A stretch of 20,000 nt of DNA from an uncultured virus (IMG/VR IMGVR_UViG_3300044641_002811) (IMGVR_UViG_3300044641_002811), one strand, 5' to 3'; counted from the first letter of the stretch, positions 5,945 to 12,231 are shown. Program-made: numbers and translations. Notes: generated by a model from the letters alone, not told the origin.

Positions 5945-8287
5945 TCAACAAAAGAAATAGGTGGATTCGATCACGGATTCCGGTTCCAGGTCTCCGATGA
6001 TCGGGGGTTCGCTCTCTGCACCGATCTGACGGGCAAAGTCGCGCAGGTAGTCGTGCTCTGCAAACAGGTGCATGTATGTCTCGCGTACCAATGTGGATAG
6101 AACGGACATGTCAGTCGCCCTGCACAGCACGGAGTCGTGGATCAATGCAATCGGTGCATCGAACCGCAAAGTGGACAGGTGGAGCAGCGCTGCATCCAAT
6201 GAATGGATCAGATTTGGGCTCGTTGCATTCTTGTGGTGGTTGAGGTCCACCTTGTCGGTGTCACCTGTCGCCACAGACAACTTGCACTCACCCAGCAGTT
6301 GCAGCTCAATGCGGACCACCTCTTTCTTCATCAACTTTTGGTTGACGACAAAGCCAGAGGGTGTAGTCCACTGCAGCTTTTCTGCCCCGCGCTTGATGGC
6401 ATTGGCCACTTCTTCCTCAATCCAACGCATGACACGCATGGGACCAGGGAAGATCTCCTCCATCGCTGCTCGAACGGCAGCAACGGTTTCCGTTAGGTCT
6501 TCTTTGGAGACCTCAACGCCTTTCTCGGCCAACGCTTCACGGATGTAGGAGCGATTGGAATAGGGTTTGGCATTGTAAGGAATCGTTAAACATGTGCGCT
6601 TGGTGACTTTCCGATCCATGTGGTCTCGAATGGACGCAGGACAGTTTGGTTTAGCGGCTTCGGCCACCACCTTGTACGCATCCTGCGGTTGATCACTCGG
6701 CACCACATTGACCATCTTTGCTGTTGATTTACAGCGACACAGCCCAGCCAGGATCTGGAGTCCTGAGCAGGTGGCGTCTGTGGCCACCATCAGCCCTGTG
6801 AATTGCCGATCCGCTGCAATGACGCAGTGGTAGTACTCCTCACAGGCGGCCAAGAACTGCCATGGTTCATCGGCTACTTCCCACTCAGGTAAACACCCAA
6901 TCGGATCTGTAGCGACACGCGTGATGAGTGTGAGGTTATCCGCCGTCCACTCCAAGCGCTCCGCCATGGTGGCTTTGTCCAAGCCGTAGGTGGTCGCAAC
7001 CTGGAACGACAACCATTGCTCTGCTTCAGGAGTCATGAACGACTCATCGGCAAAGCGCAGAAGAGACTTTCCAAAATCAGTATCCTGCGGGGTCAAGAAT
7101 GCGGGAATTGGATAAGCTCTCCCGCGATAATCCATCGACCACGGACAATGGAAACGCTCAACCTTCTTGAACCGACGCACCGCTTCCATCGTCATGCGTG
7201 TCCGGCATGATCGCTTGAACTCTTGGGCATTCAGGTTCATCGTCTCTGCTGCACGTCTTCGATAATCCTTCCGGCTATCGTAGTTCTCAGCAATGTCCAC
7301 GGGCTTTGGTGGTAGCTCGTGATGCACGATGGGTCTGAACTTCCCAACAGGTCGTTGCAGCCGCTCTAACTCTTCCGCTACCTCCACAATGAAGGGATTG
7401 AGGCGAAAGGCAACCTTCTGAATTTTGTTCAGAAAAGCCAGGGGCACTTCCCCCTGTATAGATGTCGGATCTCCACGGCGTACCAAATCATGACCGCGCA
7501 TCACCTCATTGAGTAGGTAGCCACCAGCGCGTTCGTTGGTCCAATCGTTGGGTTCAATCAACATCGGCCACGCCAACGGCGCGAACAGTTCTGAATCGCT
7601 GATCACCTTGTCTTTGATCGCCAAGAACTCTGGGGTCGGTGCGATGAACTGCATCTTTCTGCGTCCCTCTTGACGCACGATGCGATCAAACCAACCGCTG
7701 CTTTGGATGATGCACTCCAGCAGCCAGCCCCCCAGCTTGACCCGATTTGAGGATCCCCAGCTCTTCCAGGGTTCCACCTCGCAGCGGTTCATCAGGGTGC
7801 GGATCACCACCAGTTTTTGATGGGTGCCGATGGAACGGTGCCAGTAGTTCTGTTTCAGTGTGTTAAGGAGCCCTGGGGCCTTGCGTTCGTAGTGGCGCAT
7901 CTGGCATTCCGCCTCCACCGCAGCACCCACCGCTTCACAGACAGTGGTGACCTGATCGCTGCCTTTCTTGGTGCTGAACACCTTGTCGAAGGTCACCTTC
8001 AGGGCAATGGCCCCGGCGGCTTTGGCGTCTAGGTCCGTCAAGTACTGATGGATTTCCTTGAAGGCGACCCCGGTTTTGCCGCGTTTGATCGCGTACTCCA
8101 CCGTGGACTCGATTTGCGTCACCAGCTTTGGCAGCAGCGCTTCGATGGAGGCGGCGCCATAGACCGTGGCACTCGCGTAGCTCTGGTCTTCGAGCTTGCG
8201 CGTGTTGTCACGCAGCTTTTGGAGCCCGAGTCTGATCTGATCGCGCTCCAGTTGGATTTGCTCATCAATTTGAGCGGGTGTGGGCAT
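5945..8287 (-). CDS. Single-subunit DNA-dependent RNA polymerase (T7 gp1 / Syn5-like)
   Basis: DYRGRAY, motif A DATCSGLQ, motif B RKVTKR...PY, PNLIHSLDA, motif C IHDS, C-terminal YFFC. The 780-aa size fits the compact cyanopodovirus RNAPs. Confidence 0.97.
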   Translation of the reverse strand: MPTPAQIDEQIQLERDQIRLGLQKLRDNTRKLEDQSYASATVYGAASIEALLPKLVTQIESTVEYAIKRGKTGVAFKEIHQYLTDLDAKAAGAIALKVTFDKVFSTKKGSDQVTTVCEAVGAAVEAECQMRHYERKAPGLLNTLKQNYWHRSIGTHQKLVVIRTLMNRCEVEPWKSWGSSNRVKLGGWLLECIIQSSGWFDRIVRQEGRRKMQFIAPTPEFLAIKDKVISDSELFAPLAWPMLIEPNDWTNERAGGYLLNEVMRGHDLVRRGDPTSIQGEVPLAFLNKIQKVAFRLNPFIVEVAEELERLQRPVGKFRPIVHHELPPKPVDIAENYDSRKDYRRRAAETMNLNAQEFKRSCRTRMTMEAVRRFKKVERFHCPWSMDYRGRAYPIPAFLTPQDTDFGKSLLRFADESFMTPEAEQWLSFQVATTYGLDKATMAERLEWTADNLTLITRVATDPIGCLPEWEVADEPWQFLAACEEYYHCVIAADRQFTGLMVATDATCSGLQILAGLCRCKSTAKMVNVVPSDQPQDAYKVVAEAAKPNCPASIRDHMDRKVTKRTCLTIPYNAKPYSNRSYIREALAEKGVEVSKEDLTETVAAVRAAMEEIFPGPMRVMRWIEEEVANAIKRGAEKLQWTTPSGFVVNQKLMKKEVVRIELQLLGECKLSVATGDTDKVDLNHHKNATSPNLIHSLDAALLHLSTLRFDAPIALIHDSVLCRATDMSVLSTLVRETYMHLFAEHDYLRDFARQIGAESEPPIIGDLEPESVIESTYFFC

Positions 8288-8370
8288 GGGCGTCTCAATA
8301 AGAATTGTTTCGTCGGTGAGACTCGATCTTCATCTATCCACATACGGCTGTGTACAACCGTGAGACCCAA

Positions 8371-8393
8371 TAAAAAAGGGCCGGTTGGCCCTG
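8371..8393 (-). terminator. Intrinsic terminator between attP and the RNAP gene
   Basis: Minus strand AGGGCC-AACC-GGCCCT followed by TTTTTA. Confidence 0.75.
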
Positions 8394-8427
8394 ATGAGTG
8401 TGAAATGTGGACAGACCTAGGCGTCAC

Positions 8428-8467
8428 ATTTTGAGTCGAGTCCGTCTACCAATTCCGGCACGCTCCC
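8428..8467 (-). other. Putative attP core: 5' half of tRNA-Leu(CAA), not a full tRNA
   Basis: GGGAGCG TG CCGGAATTGGTAGACGG A CTCGA CTCAAAA T gives the acceptor 5' strand, a Leu-type D-arm, the 5' anticodon stem and the CAA loop. The next bases (GTGAC) do not complete the stem and no T-arm follows. Lies 85 bp downstream of the integrase. Confidence 0.8.
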
Positions 8468-8514
8468 ACAGGGATTCCAGCCGATCTCATTGCTGAGATC
8501 CGCCCTGCGAAATC

Positions 8515-8523
8515 ACCATAGCA
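8515..8523 (-). promoter_or_regulatory. Possible extended -10 element upstream of the tRNA half
   Basis: TGCTATGGT (TGn + TATGGT) about 48 nt upstream of the tRNA 5' end; no convincing -35. Confidence 0.35.
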
Positions 8524-8552
8524 GGCTGTGGCGGGATTGGCGTAGACAACCA

Positions 8553-9470
8553 TTAGATGTTGTTGGCTGTGCTCAAAACGGCGTCCTGTGTGTTATGGAC
8601 GTACCGCTCGGTGGTCTCCACTCGCTTGTGACCCATAGCGGCCTTGACGTGCATCAAGGGTGCACCGGCTGCGATCTGCCACGTCCCGAAGGTGTGACGC
8701 AGTGTGTGGAAGACATACGATTCATCAATGTAGGGATCCAATCGGATCGCCTTGTCCCTCACTTTGTTGAAGTGACGGTTGATGATCTGACGGCTGTACC
8801 ACACCTCACCAAAGACCAGATCCATTGCGTCCTTGCCATGGAGTCGCCGTTGGAGCATCTCCACGATCTTGTCGTTGATGCCCACCTGGCGGTAGTTCTT
8901 GGCCTTGGTCACGGAATCAGGTGTACCACCGATGTGAATGACAGGCTGTTGCGGCCTGAAGTCCACGTCCCTGACCTTGAGTTTGCGTAACTCTGCTTGC
9001 CGTGCTCCGGTATACACCGCTGCACGAATCAGGTCAGCCAACTCGAAGTCACCCCGTTCACAGGCAAGGTTGGTGAGCAACGTCACCTGCTCTTTGGTGA
9101 ACCAGTTGGTGCGTCCTTCCCCTTCCTTGTAGCGTTGAATGACAGGAATGGCGTTGATGTACCCGTCCCTGGCTGCGATCTTGAGGACCATGCTAATCGT
9201 TGAGATGAAACGATTGGCAGAACCATTTGACCAACTGTAGCTGTCTACAGCATCTTGAACCACCGCTTTTATGAACGGTGTGTTGATGATTGTGAGGGCA
9301 GGATCACCAGCGATTTCTTCAAACTGTTTGGCGTGACGAATCACGTTCATACCGTTTGCTGTCTTGGGATCCCATTGCTGGGTCAAGGCATGTTCAAACG
9401 CTTGGCTAAACGTCTTGATCGACGTTTTCTTGGGGATGCGGTCAAGGATGCGTTGGGTTCGCTTATCCAT
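8553..9470 (-). CDS. int: Tyrosine recombinase / phage integrase
   Basis: Catalytic residues all present: R (TGARQAEL), K (TKAK), HxxR (FHTLRH), H (MGH), Y (ERYVH). Confidence 0.95.
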   Translation of the reverse strand: MDKRTQRILDRIPKKTSIKTFSQAFEHALTQQWDPKTANGMNVIRHAKQFEEIAGDPALTIINTPFIKAVVQDAVDSYSWSNGSANRFISTISMVLKIAARDGYINAIPVIQRYKEGEGRTNWFTKEQVTLLTNLACERGDFELADLIRAAVYTGARQAELRKLKVRDVDFRPQQPVIHIGGTPDSVTKAKNYRQVGINDKIVEMLQRRLHGKDAMDLVFGEVWYSRQIINRHFNKVRDKAIRLDPYIDESYVFHTLRHTFGTWQIAAGAPLMHVKAAMGHKRVETTERYVHNTQDAVLSTANNI

Positions 9471-9816
9471 AGAGGGTTGATTCGATTTGTCGGATTAAAT
9501 CGTGGCCTCGTTTGGTTAACCGTAGAGTCAACCTTTTTCTGTCGATAGGGTCTACCTCCTTGGTGATAAGATCCATCCCTGGCTTACCTAGATAATGCTC
9601 ACTTGTCAGTCGAGCAATGTTTCGACTGCTGCTCGCAGTAGTGAGTCCTAAGTCCTCCTCTAATGCTTGCTTGTGGCAATTATCGTGGCTTGCAATGTAG
9701 AAAAAACAAGCCAAAGCTTGGGCTGGTACTGATCGGTCAAGTACCCTCAACAATTCCATGACCCGAAGCATCCGCTCCATGTCTGGATTAGTGCGGGTCC
9801 TCCGTAATGGGTCCAT
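9463..9816 (-). CDS. MarR-like winged-helix transcriptional regulator
   Basis: HTH segment (KQALEEDLGLTTASSSRNIARL) and wing (DPIDRKRLTLRLTKRG) typical of the MarR family; overlaps the int start. Confidence 0.85.
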   Translation of the reverse strand: MDPLRRTRTNPDMERMLRVMELLRVLDRSVPAQALACFFYIASHDNCHKQALEEDLGLTTASSSRNIARLTSEHYLGKPGMDLITKEVDPIDRKRLTLRLTKRGHDLIRQIESTLYG

Positions 9817-10797: not shown

Positions 10798-10823
10798 AAA
10801 AAAACACGGGTGTTATCCCGTGT
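10798..10823 (-). terminator. Intrinsic terminator in the early region
   Basis: Minus strand ACACGGG-ATAACA-CCCGTGT followed by TTTTTT. Confidence 0.8.
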
Positions 10824-10832
10824 CTATTGATA

Positions 10833-11378: not shown

Positions 11379-11708
11379 TCAAAGGAATGTGAACACGTAT
11401 CCGTTCTCATTGGCCATGCAGCCAACAAGCTTGAAAGAACCATTGATCTCCGGCACTTGCTTAAGCAGATATTGCCAAGCAGCGTTGAAGTGATTCTCTT
11501 GTGTGTTCAGTGAGTGGTCATACCCAAAGGATTGTGCACGCTGTGTGCGTCCTGGGAATTTGCACTTGATGCGGCCTTCGTTGTACCCAGTCTCAATGGA
11601 CCAAGCCCAACCAGGAGCCATCTTGATGATCTCTTGAATATCAATACCATTCATTGGCTGAGTGGTCTTGATCTGTGGTGCAGCAGTGTTGCTGAACTCG
11701 ATGGTCAT
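11379..11708 (-). CDS. Early hypothetical protein (109 aa)
   Basis: MTIEFSNTAAPQ...GYDHSLNTQENHFNAA...GYVFTFL; start trimmed to ATG 11708. Confidence 0.7.
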   Translation of the reverse strand: MTIEFSNTAAPQIKTTQPMNGIDIQEIIKMAPGWAWSIETGYNEGRIKCKFPGRTQRAQSFGYDHSLNTQENHFNAAWQYLLKQVPEINGSFKLVGCMANENGYVFTFL

Positions 11709-11791
11709 TGTGTGTACCAGAGCGGACAGAGTAAGTAGCACTGTGAAGGCTACAGAAAGGGAGACACATGGTGCGTCCCTGAGTGTAGACA

Positions 11792-11980: not shown

Positions 11981-12202
11981 GGTGTTGCGTCCGTGATCAG
12001 GTGGAGCAGTGCGAACACTGCAGAAAGCCTTCACACCGCATACGGACGCGGATAGAAGGCAGAGTGCAATGATCAAACAAAGCGTGTTGCTCCGCTTGCT
12101 ACTGCTTGTGCTCCTCGCGGTCAGAGACCCATGCCGCTAGTCGTCACCACTGGTTGACCCAGTAACGGAGCTACTATTAAGTTGTCGATGTTCGATGGGC
12201 TG

Positions 12203-12231
12203 ACTGTATACCAGAGCGGATACAGCGTCAA
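12203..12231 (-). promoter_or_regulatory. Host sigma70-type early promoter
   Basis: TTGACG-17 nt-TACAGT on the minus strand, upstream of the first early gene. The spacer holds a TRTCCRC-N4-GTA motif. Confidence 0.7.

Follow-up and report, generated by a model that had tools for sequence, protein, structure and literature searches.

The DNA between the integrase gene (int) and the RNA polymerase (RNAP) gene in the stretch analysed here, a window of 20,000 nucleotides, is very probably a phage attachment site (attP), set within a regulator-int-attP-terminator-pre-RNAP module of an uncultured freshwater T7-like cyanopodovirus. Such an attP, its origin in the 5' half of a tRNA gene and its place before RNAP are already in print for this phage group, and, judged by its sequence, the site in the window is of the type that has been shown to work in S-TIP37 and P-SSP7. 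What appears to be new is the conserved anatomy of the arms and the link between a terminator and the int module, which were not found described in the available portions of the related-phage literature. The account given below is built on sequence identity, gene identities and the conservation of parts, all observed here.

The long ORFs of the window lie on the minus strand throughout, and the genes that give the site its setting are as follows.

19112 to 18144, minus strand: lysin gene, combining papain-like peptidase and glucosaminidase parts
15920 to 14181, minus strand: T7-type terminase gene
13861 to 13214, minus strand: ThyX thymidylate synthase gene, between the terminase gene and the early region
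Between the ThyX gene and the 117-aa regulator gene, minus strand: small early ORFs
9463 to 9816, minus strand: gene for a 117-aa winged-helix/MarR-like regulator, overlapping the int start (phrog_9665 'transcriptional regulator', E 5.8e-40)
8553 to 9470, minus strand: tyrosine integrase gene (int), 305 aa (Pfam Phage_integrase, E 3.5e-24; phrog_1, E 5.6e-43)
5945 to 8287, minus strand: T7-like single-subunit RNAP gene, 780 aa (Pfam RNA_pol, E 6e-64; RPOL_N, E 2e-15)
After RNAP in minus-strand gene order: genes for an SSB-like protein, a primase-helicase and a family A DNA polymerase

By its RNAP, SSB-like, primase-helicase, DNA polymerase and T7-type terminase genes, the window is from a T7-like cyanopodovirus. 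Its nearest nucleotide matches are the Synechococcus podoviruses S-CBP1 and S-CBP3 (about 70% identity; 72% at the nucleotide level between the RNAP genes of the window and S-CBP1), and the records that match it are cyanophages or uncultured marine phages in 42 of 42 cases. The nearest record of all, a virus contig of 44.7 kb that is 99% complete (G001), is 98% identical to the window over int and attP, and near-identical DNA (at least half of the sampled words) is carried by 13 runs, whose labels are mostly lake or freshwater metagenome. The DNA polymerase appears as two overlapping ORFs on the minus strand (2117-1605 and 1695-370, within 370-2117 of the window), and a similar split or frameshift has been noted in the S-TIP37 record.

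The translation of int contains the catalytic-type motifs TGARQAE, HTLRHTF and MGH..ERY, and its stop codon (TAA, 8555-8553) lies 85 nt ahead of the tRNA-like core described below, beyond which the RNAP start codon (ATG) is found at 8287-8285 on the same strand. The upstream regulator is called MarR-like here after the name of its PHROG, the Pfam MarR_2 profile giving E 0.016 and 15.8 bits, below the cut-off of 27. A gene occupies the same position in S-TIP37, where gp10 is annotated as 'DNA-binding domain', and also in LUZ100 (PMC10134795) and in pelagiphages (Zhao 2018, bioRxiv 10.1101/410191). Within the early region, a strong terminator-like site with a 9-bp stem and then seven T is present at 10802-10825 on the minus strand, and the sites at 10825-10802 and 8392-8371 bracket a four-ORF unit, made up of ORFs of 141 aa and 62 aa together with the regulator and int; a promoter-like site is seen at 10605-10576. 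Two direct repeats of 34 nt (11698-11731 and 12192-12225) are 76% alike and share the minus-strand core TCCGCTCTGGTA(T/C)ACA; one of them overlaps a promoter-like site at 12231-12203 and the other lies just ahead of an ATG.

Between int and RNAP, the parts of the putative attachment site are arranged on the minus strand as follows.

8471 to 8523, minus strand: int-side (P) arm of attP, with a TGCTATGGT box, a hairpin at 8504-8479 and a conserved block ending in GGAATCCC
8428 to 8467, minus strand: attP core, an exact copy of nt 1-40 of the host tRNA-Leu(CAA)
8371 to 8427, minus strand: first part of the RNAP-side (P') arm, with a TCCAC box 16 nt past the core and then a predicted intrinsic terminator
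8392 to 8377 (stem) and 8376 to 8371 (TTTTTT), minus strand: the predicted intrinsic terminator, -11.4 kcal/mol, z -2.3
8288 to 8370, minus strand: terminator-to-RNAP region, which holds the motif CCGTATGTGG at 8347-8338

The initial annotation of this DNA had described the same succession, from the int stop through the TGCTATGGT box, a hairpin, a tRNA half, a terminator and a motif copy to the RNAP ATG, and each of these elements is present at or near the place assigned to it. Its central proposal, an attP made from the 5' part of tRNA-Leu(CAA) and adjoining int, is borne out by a match of 40/40 bases to host loci. The core covers the acceptor, the D arm, the 5' strand of the anticodon stem, the anticodon loop and one further nucleotide, and the exact 40-mer occurs in at least 120 genome stretches, of which 119 of those listed are ordinary tRNA-Leu(CAA) genes. 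ARAGORN called tRNA-Leu(caa) at 16/16 loci checked, with the gene starting at the first matched base in 15/16 and one base earlier in 1/16. In an alignment of the window with nine hosts, identity runs from G1 to T40, after which CGAG follows in the hosts and GTGA in the window; identity through the anticodon loop and a host continuation of TCGAG had been predicted for picocyanobacterial tRNAs, and this is the result that the comparison returned. The piece in the window is a fragment, since ARAGORN finds no whole tRNA there, and an Rfam scan of 8200-8700 at E <= 10 likewise gave no tRNA and two chance-level matches only. It had also been suggested that the 40-mer would indicate the host, which it does as far as the picocyanobacteria and no finer, because the sequence is identical, among the matches listed, in Cyanobium, Vulcanococcus, Synechococcus and some Prochlorococcus records. 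Several metagenome-assembled genomes named Rhizobium, Bradyrhizobium, Klebsiella, Asaia and Acidovorax hold the ordinary picocyanobacterial tRNA-Leu(CAA) locus, and their names therefore look wrong.

A wider comparison was made with a search pattern in which a gap separated the box GGAATCCC from the D-arm of the core, and which matched 76 viral contigs; together with the window and L017, a 5.9-kb contig binned as 'Ignavibacteria' that is a cyanophage attP region, these make 78 sequences and 63 unique regions, of which 61-63 were used per analysis. Four core types are found among the 78, namely the S-TIP37 type (CAG; 53 sequences), the same with another last base (5), the CAA type of the window (19) and 1 further, and in all four the tRNA identity ends at position 39-40. 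Among 50,697 GenBank phage records, S-CBP3 (3 records, which carry no annotation of an attP site) is the only phage with the exact 40-mer. This phage of Synechococcus (host CB0101, Chesapeake Bay) shares with the window the order of int, box, hairpin, core, terminator and RNAP, as S-TIP37 shares the order of parts; S-CBP3 differs in that it is about 69% identical to the window in nucleotides over RNAP and int, and in that its tRNA identity is 2 bases longer.

Several related systems have been described. In P-SSP7, a 42-bp match to the host tRNA-Leu gene lies downstream of int, as stated in the available part of the report (Sullivan et al., 2005; PMC1079782). According to the accessible text of a later study, an attP is present in 11/13 int-bearing T7-like cyanophages and matches the first half of tRNA-Leu, and junction PCR was positive for both S-TIP37 and P-SSP7 from 2 h after infection, with the junctions being lost in int and attP deletions (Shitrit et al., 2021; PMC8776855). 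It has thus been shown by others in relatives that integration requires int and attP. The same text reports that integration takes place during lytic infection and without lysogeny, with no stable S-TIP37 lysogens obtained even under selection; it describes S-TIP37 and four 39-bp motifs, and a supplement legend states that the fitness of the deletion strains was without significant difference (Shitrit et al., 2021; PMC8776855). P-SSP7, S-TIP37 and the window are alike in having int, then an exact copy, 39-44 bp long, of the first half of a cyanobacterial tRNA-Leu gene, then a T7-like RNAP, and S-TIP37 and the window have the flanking block and hairpin in common; the core of S-TIP37 is CAG-type as opposed to the tRNA-Leu(CAA) core of the window, and the window phage, unlike P-SSP7 and S-TIP37, is known from lake and freshwater metagenomes only. 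As far as the available versions go, the terms 'RNA polymerase' and 'terminator' are absent from the main text of the 2021 study, and the name S-CBP3 and the letters of the motifs are absent from that text and two supplements (PMC8776855); integrase and tRNA are not mentioned in Huang 2015 (PMC4646655).

Temperate T7-like phages (the pelagiphage HTVC019P group, Pseudomonas phage LUZ100 and Pasto) also resemble the window, in that a regulator, of MarR type in those phages and putatively so in the window, is found with int just before RNAP. In T7-like pelagiphages, every attP is reported to be situated between int and RNAP, with the phage supplying the 5' part that restores the host tRNA (Zhao 2018, bioRxiv 10.1101/410191); the window has its attP in the same place and would likewise supply the 5' part. 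In LUZ100, the MarR-int operon is strongly terminated right past int and a phage promoter precedes RNAP, and read-through of this terminator is put forward by the authors as the origin of the first RNAP (Putzeys 2023; PMC10134795); here too the window is similar, with a predicted terminator past int and a possible special promoter region before RNAP. The same paper relays, in its available part, that the pelagiphages and Agrobacterium phage Pasto (Boeckman 2022) lysogenize, and summarises the operator model of Boeckman 2022 (PMC10134795). In this respect the groups differ, since the pelagiphages and Pasto lysogenize whereas the cyanophage relatives of the window integrate without lysogeny.

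Replacement of the 5' part of a tRNA is reportedly rare in general, a view attributed to Williams in 2002, and the initial annotation had presented it as the rarer type. For this phage group the description fails, as 5'-part replacement is there the published rule in the text available from two studies (Shitrit et al., 2021; Zhao 2018). The tRNA piece might alternatively be the relic of an old imprecise excision, or a phage tRNA gene in decay, with no present function. Such an origin is extremely improbable, even though neither ARAGORN nor Rfam calls a tRNA here and, in the LUZ100 paper, complete tRNA-Leu genes found near int in some T7-like phages are interpreted as relics of excision (PMC10134795): a relic would be expected to decay, yet 40/40 bases match the host with sharp boundaries at positions 1 and 40, the same boundaries recur in 4 core types and 78 sequences, and deletion of the equivalent S-TIP37 site is reported to abolish integration in the available text (PMC8776855).

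The sequence conservation extends from the core into the arm on the int side. There, the GGAATCCC end of the block lies 3 nt ahead of the tRNA +1 in the window, and across 62 unique relatives the block has the consensus TCTCA..G(agtc).(a)ATCGCTGGAATCCC, ending 2-3 nt ahead of the tRNA +1, the last 8 bases being imposed by the search pattern and the remainder free. The TGCTATGGT sequence (8523-8515, minus strand) falls within a box that is conserved among CAA-type relatives (consensus gctgcta.catg). As a motif repeated across the window it was rejected, with 4 matches at one mismatch or fewer as compared with 3.75 expected and hence no enrichment. The hairpin at 8504-8479 on the minus strand has a predicted energy of -15.3 kcal/mol (z -4.1), and single-sequence folds give a pre-core hairpin of -8 kcal/mol or better in 16/18 CAA-type and 41/43 CAG-type relatives. 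RNAalifold, applied to the 50 nt before the core in 62 sequences, returned 0 pairs and no consensus structure, so that the pre-core element is a conserved sequence block and not a proven hairpin. The block at 8471-8505 (minus strand) and its counterparts in relatives can also be read as TTCTCA, 16-17 nt and TGGAAT, ending 6 nt before the tRNA +1 and near the position of the host TAnnnT box. Read in this way, the block may be a weak promoter that the phage provides for the rebuilt tRNA, against which the G at the second base of the -10 hexamer argues. A resemblance of the pre-core block to a tRNA T-arm was also seen, and this reading was dropped.

On the RNAP side, the segment 8392-8371 has the form expected of an intrinsic terminator, with a G+C-rich stem-loop (a 6-bp stem, 5 of the pairs being G-C, and a 4-nt loop) and then a T-run on the coding strand, and is accordingly treated as a predicted one. 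A terminator-like site past the core is present in 45/61 unique relatives, compared with a mean of 2.1 in shuffles (maximum 7), a few of the 45 being other hairpins farther downstream; a G+C-rich hairpin is present on this side in 60/61 unique regions, compared with a shuffle mean of 32.2, and some relatives have the hairpin without a T-run (L127 and L148, for example). These hairpins lie mostly 25-55 nt past the core, so placed that position is conserved and sequences differ. Across the 61 regions, TCCAC/GTGGA boxes number 105, as opposed to 20.9 expected in shuffles (maximum 34), with peaks at 10-19, 20-29 and 70-79 nt past the core; those of the window lie 16 and 86 nt past it, and the second (GTGGA) overlaps a copy of the CCGTATGYGG motif discussed below. 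Short boxes at fixed arm distances of this kind are consistent with an attP of the lambda type, in which they would be candidate arm sites.

The terminator seems to be tied to the integration module. In four integrase-less relatives, which were picked from the nucleotide match list of the window and are not a random sample, the RNAP gene either abuts the preceding early ORF (S-CBP4, S-SBP1) or follows gaps of 86 and 65 nt (S-B28 and S-RIP1, respectively), and a terminator-like site on the coding strand before RNAP is found in 0/4, the single match in S-RIP1 being on the other strand. Since 4/4 of these relatives are without it, the terminator and a pre-RNAP region of about 85 nt appear to accompany int and attP.

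Between the terminator and the RNAP ATG, CCGTATGYGG is the only recurrent motif that was found. Its exact copies on the minus strand lie at 12045-12036, 11349-11340 and 8347-8338, each 51-56 nt ahead of an ATG, and at one mismatch or fewer there are 4 matches in comparison with 1.32 expected, a number reached in 7/200 shuffles. The motif is kept in near relatives (L130, L144 and L188), and S-CBP3 differs from the window in having no CCGTATGYGG before RNAP. No sigma-70-like site was found by the scan between the terminator and the RNAP ATG, nor a TAnnnT hexamer by eye. One explanation, to be held tentatively and with more doubt than belief, is that CCGTATGYGG is a promoter for the phage's own RNAP, which would amplify its own synthesis from 8347-8338 once a few molecules exist, an idea that follows the proposal for LUZ100 promoter phi1 in the available text (PMC10134795). 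Three exact coding-strand copies at 51-56 nt before ATGs, the same three of which recur in the 99%-complete G001, agree with it, as does the phage promoter reported directly ahead of RNAP in the accessible LUZ100 text (PMC10134795); moreover, the promoter of Syn5 RNAP, ATTGGGCACCCGTAA followed by a +1 G, has the common core C-R-N-CCGTA-W-G, and Syn5 itself has very few promoters, one of them within its RNAP gene (PMC3950665). The likeness to Syn5, however, covers about 8 bases and the CCGTA(A/T)G core only, the 9 upstream bases align only with a gap, and the copies do not appear to match the 15-bp Syn5-type promoter with its +1 purine. In G001, furthermore, no copy stands ahead of any middle or late gene, and one-mismatch matches are at control level. 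The copies also vary in a palindrome- or hairpin-like manner (CGCG/TGCG, CGCA/TGTG, CACA/TGTG), to which an operator or an RNA hairpin is equally suited, and the motif may thus be a phage promoter, an operator of the regulator or an RNA hairpin.

In the proposed mechanism, the tyrosine integrase would carry out strand exchange within or beside the anticodon loop. The 40 identical bases do not allow a finer placing of the crossover, whose position we infer from an identity that runs from the mature 5' end to one base past the loop, as we do the role of the terminator and what the boxes would bind. The phage copy would replace the host 5' part. Since int, RNAP and the tRNA part share one strand, an intact tRNA would form again at the junction on the int side (attR); the junction on the RNAP side (attL) would retain the host promoter together with a dead half of the tRNA, followed by the terminator. 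This geometry, with the tRNA rebuilt on the int side and RNAP behind the host tRNA promoter and the terminator, had been anticipated by the initial annotation and follows from the order and strand of the parts. The module would comprise the MarR-like regulator, int, attP, the terminator and a short conserved pre-RNAP region, in which the terminator would end the regulator-int transcription unit and would shield RNAP, from the early genes in the free phage and from the tRNA promoter once integrated. RNAP would be supplied by leak through the terminator or by an element between terminator and ATG, and not by integration as such.

Resident copies and junctions were sought in several kinds of data. 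An attL or attR junction was found at 0/119 host tRNA-Leu(CAA) loci (among the matches listed), a junction of the phage left side plus core in 0/401 picocyanobacterial genomes, and the int protein in 0/3 host genomes. The resident prophages of a stable lysogeny are thus seen in 0/401 genomes and at 0/119 loci, and no S-TIP37 lysogens are reported in the available text of the corresponding study (PMC8776855). A scan of metagenome contigs gave 0 int-side junctions and also 0 matches to the attP control pattern, and is therefore a null without weight. The contigs of four runs, contigs only, were placed on 7900-9500 to look for junctions. The DNA contigs of two of them (X2 and X3) break at the core, which is expected of a 40-nt repeat shared with the host and so cannot show integration. 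In the RNA-library run X19, a contig of 228 nt (depth 14.2) covers 8428-8605 with 5 differences and continues for 50 more bases, the first 30 of which are the reverse complement of the 3' part of the host tRNA (CGAGCGCC...), right past position 40. The contig resembles attR or an int-tRNA co-transcript, and may also be a chimera in which the assembly joined phage RNA to host tRNA: the X19 contigs come from a k=31 assembly (Logan), and with a 31-mer graph and a 40-nt core the assembler could join phage RNA and mature host tRNA. An RNA library such as X19 may also contain DNA, and this run yielded neither a contig joining the host leader to the core nor one joining the core to the terminator. 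In run X20, record 12 is the host attB. Record 11 of the same run, a 515-nt RNA-library contig, matches the RNAP start and its upstream DNA (8096-8381) with 6 differences, departs inside the terminator and goes on for 224 bases of dissimilar sequence, among them a CTGGAATCC-like box. It was considered as an attL and rejected: it parts from the window at 8381 and is a variant phage, probably a mosaic relative that carries a different module upstream. Parts of the window left uncovered in the RNA runs X19 and X20 are not evidence of silence.

The initial annotation had gone a step further and held that integration disconnects RNAP from the early promoters and by itself works as an off-switch, RNAP being made only by early read-through, the early promoters being moved away by integration and the tRNA promoter being blocked by the terminator. 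This consequence is quite unlikely. The claimed disconnection is not supported, as even in the free phage the path from the early genes to RNAP runs through the terminators at 8392-8371 and 10825-10802, so that RNAP would never be simply connected and 'connected' would mean leak through a terminator. After integration the leak would come from the tRNA promoter, and tRNA promoters are usually strong; a fall in RNAP supply is therefore not implied. The geometry that an off-switch needs is indeed given by the strand and order of the parts, the terminator is conserved, and no sigma-70-like site was found in the scan between the terminator and the RNAP ATG. RNAP moreover abuts the preceding early ORF in 2/4 integrase-less relatives, where it would thus be part of the early unit, and terminator read-through as the first RNAP source is the proposal of the LUZ100 authors in the text available (PMC10134795). 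The conserved motif past the terminator, however, would move with RNAP and stay beside it, no prophage was found in 401 genomes or at 119 tRNA loci (among the matches listed), and S-TIP37 is reported, in the accessible text, to integrate during lytic infection from 2 h with no stable lysogen and with fitness-neutral deletions (PMC8776855). By analogy, these experiments speak against a sufficient off-switch.

The hairpin past the core could instead act on int, with integration changing the 3' end of the int mRNA from the hairpin to a processed whole tRNA, so that the supply of Int differs between the two states; such retroregulation is rather improbable here. In lambda, the order is int, attP and hairpin/terminator (sib/tI), and integration separates int from the hairpin. 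The order of hairpin, attP and int is alike in the window, which fits this explanation; the gene past the hairpin is here the phage RNAP, the core is a tRNA half and, unlike in lambda, no RNase III site or antitermination is known at this site. That the position of the hairpin is kept while its sequence varies is in keeping with retroregulation, and the X19 contig, if real RNA, would be a co-transcript of the int 3' end plus tRNA, but this contig may be chimeric or derive from DNA. No sign of RNase processing was seen, and because a T-run follows the hairpin in 45/61 relatives, the hairpin is most simply a plain terminator.

A more speculative proposal, which is on the whole unlikely, regards the int module as a two-way rewiring device. 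Since attP lies between the conserved terminator and int, integration would swap what feeds RNAP, from the early operon to the host tRNA-Leu promoter, both acting through the same leaky terminator, and at the same time it would swap the end of the int message, with a whole, excised tRNA taking the place of the terminator.

The most abundant viruses of picocyanobacteria include the T7-like cyanophages, and the retention of an integrase by lytic phages calls for an explanation. To these phages the window adds a freshwater member that uses tRNA-Leu(CAA), and across 61-63 relatives the attP is larger and more structured than the published 39-bp core, with a block at the tRNA +1, boxes whose offsets are fixed and a terminator that accompanies the int module. 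The parts of the arms are concrete targets for the genetic system that exists for these phages. If the rewiring proposal were true, the balance of leak would decide whether an integrated genome stays quiet or lyses, which would explain both 'integration without lysogeny' and the presence of the terminator only in int-bearing phages.
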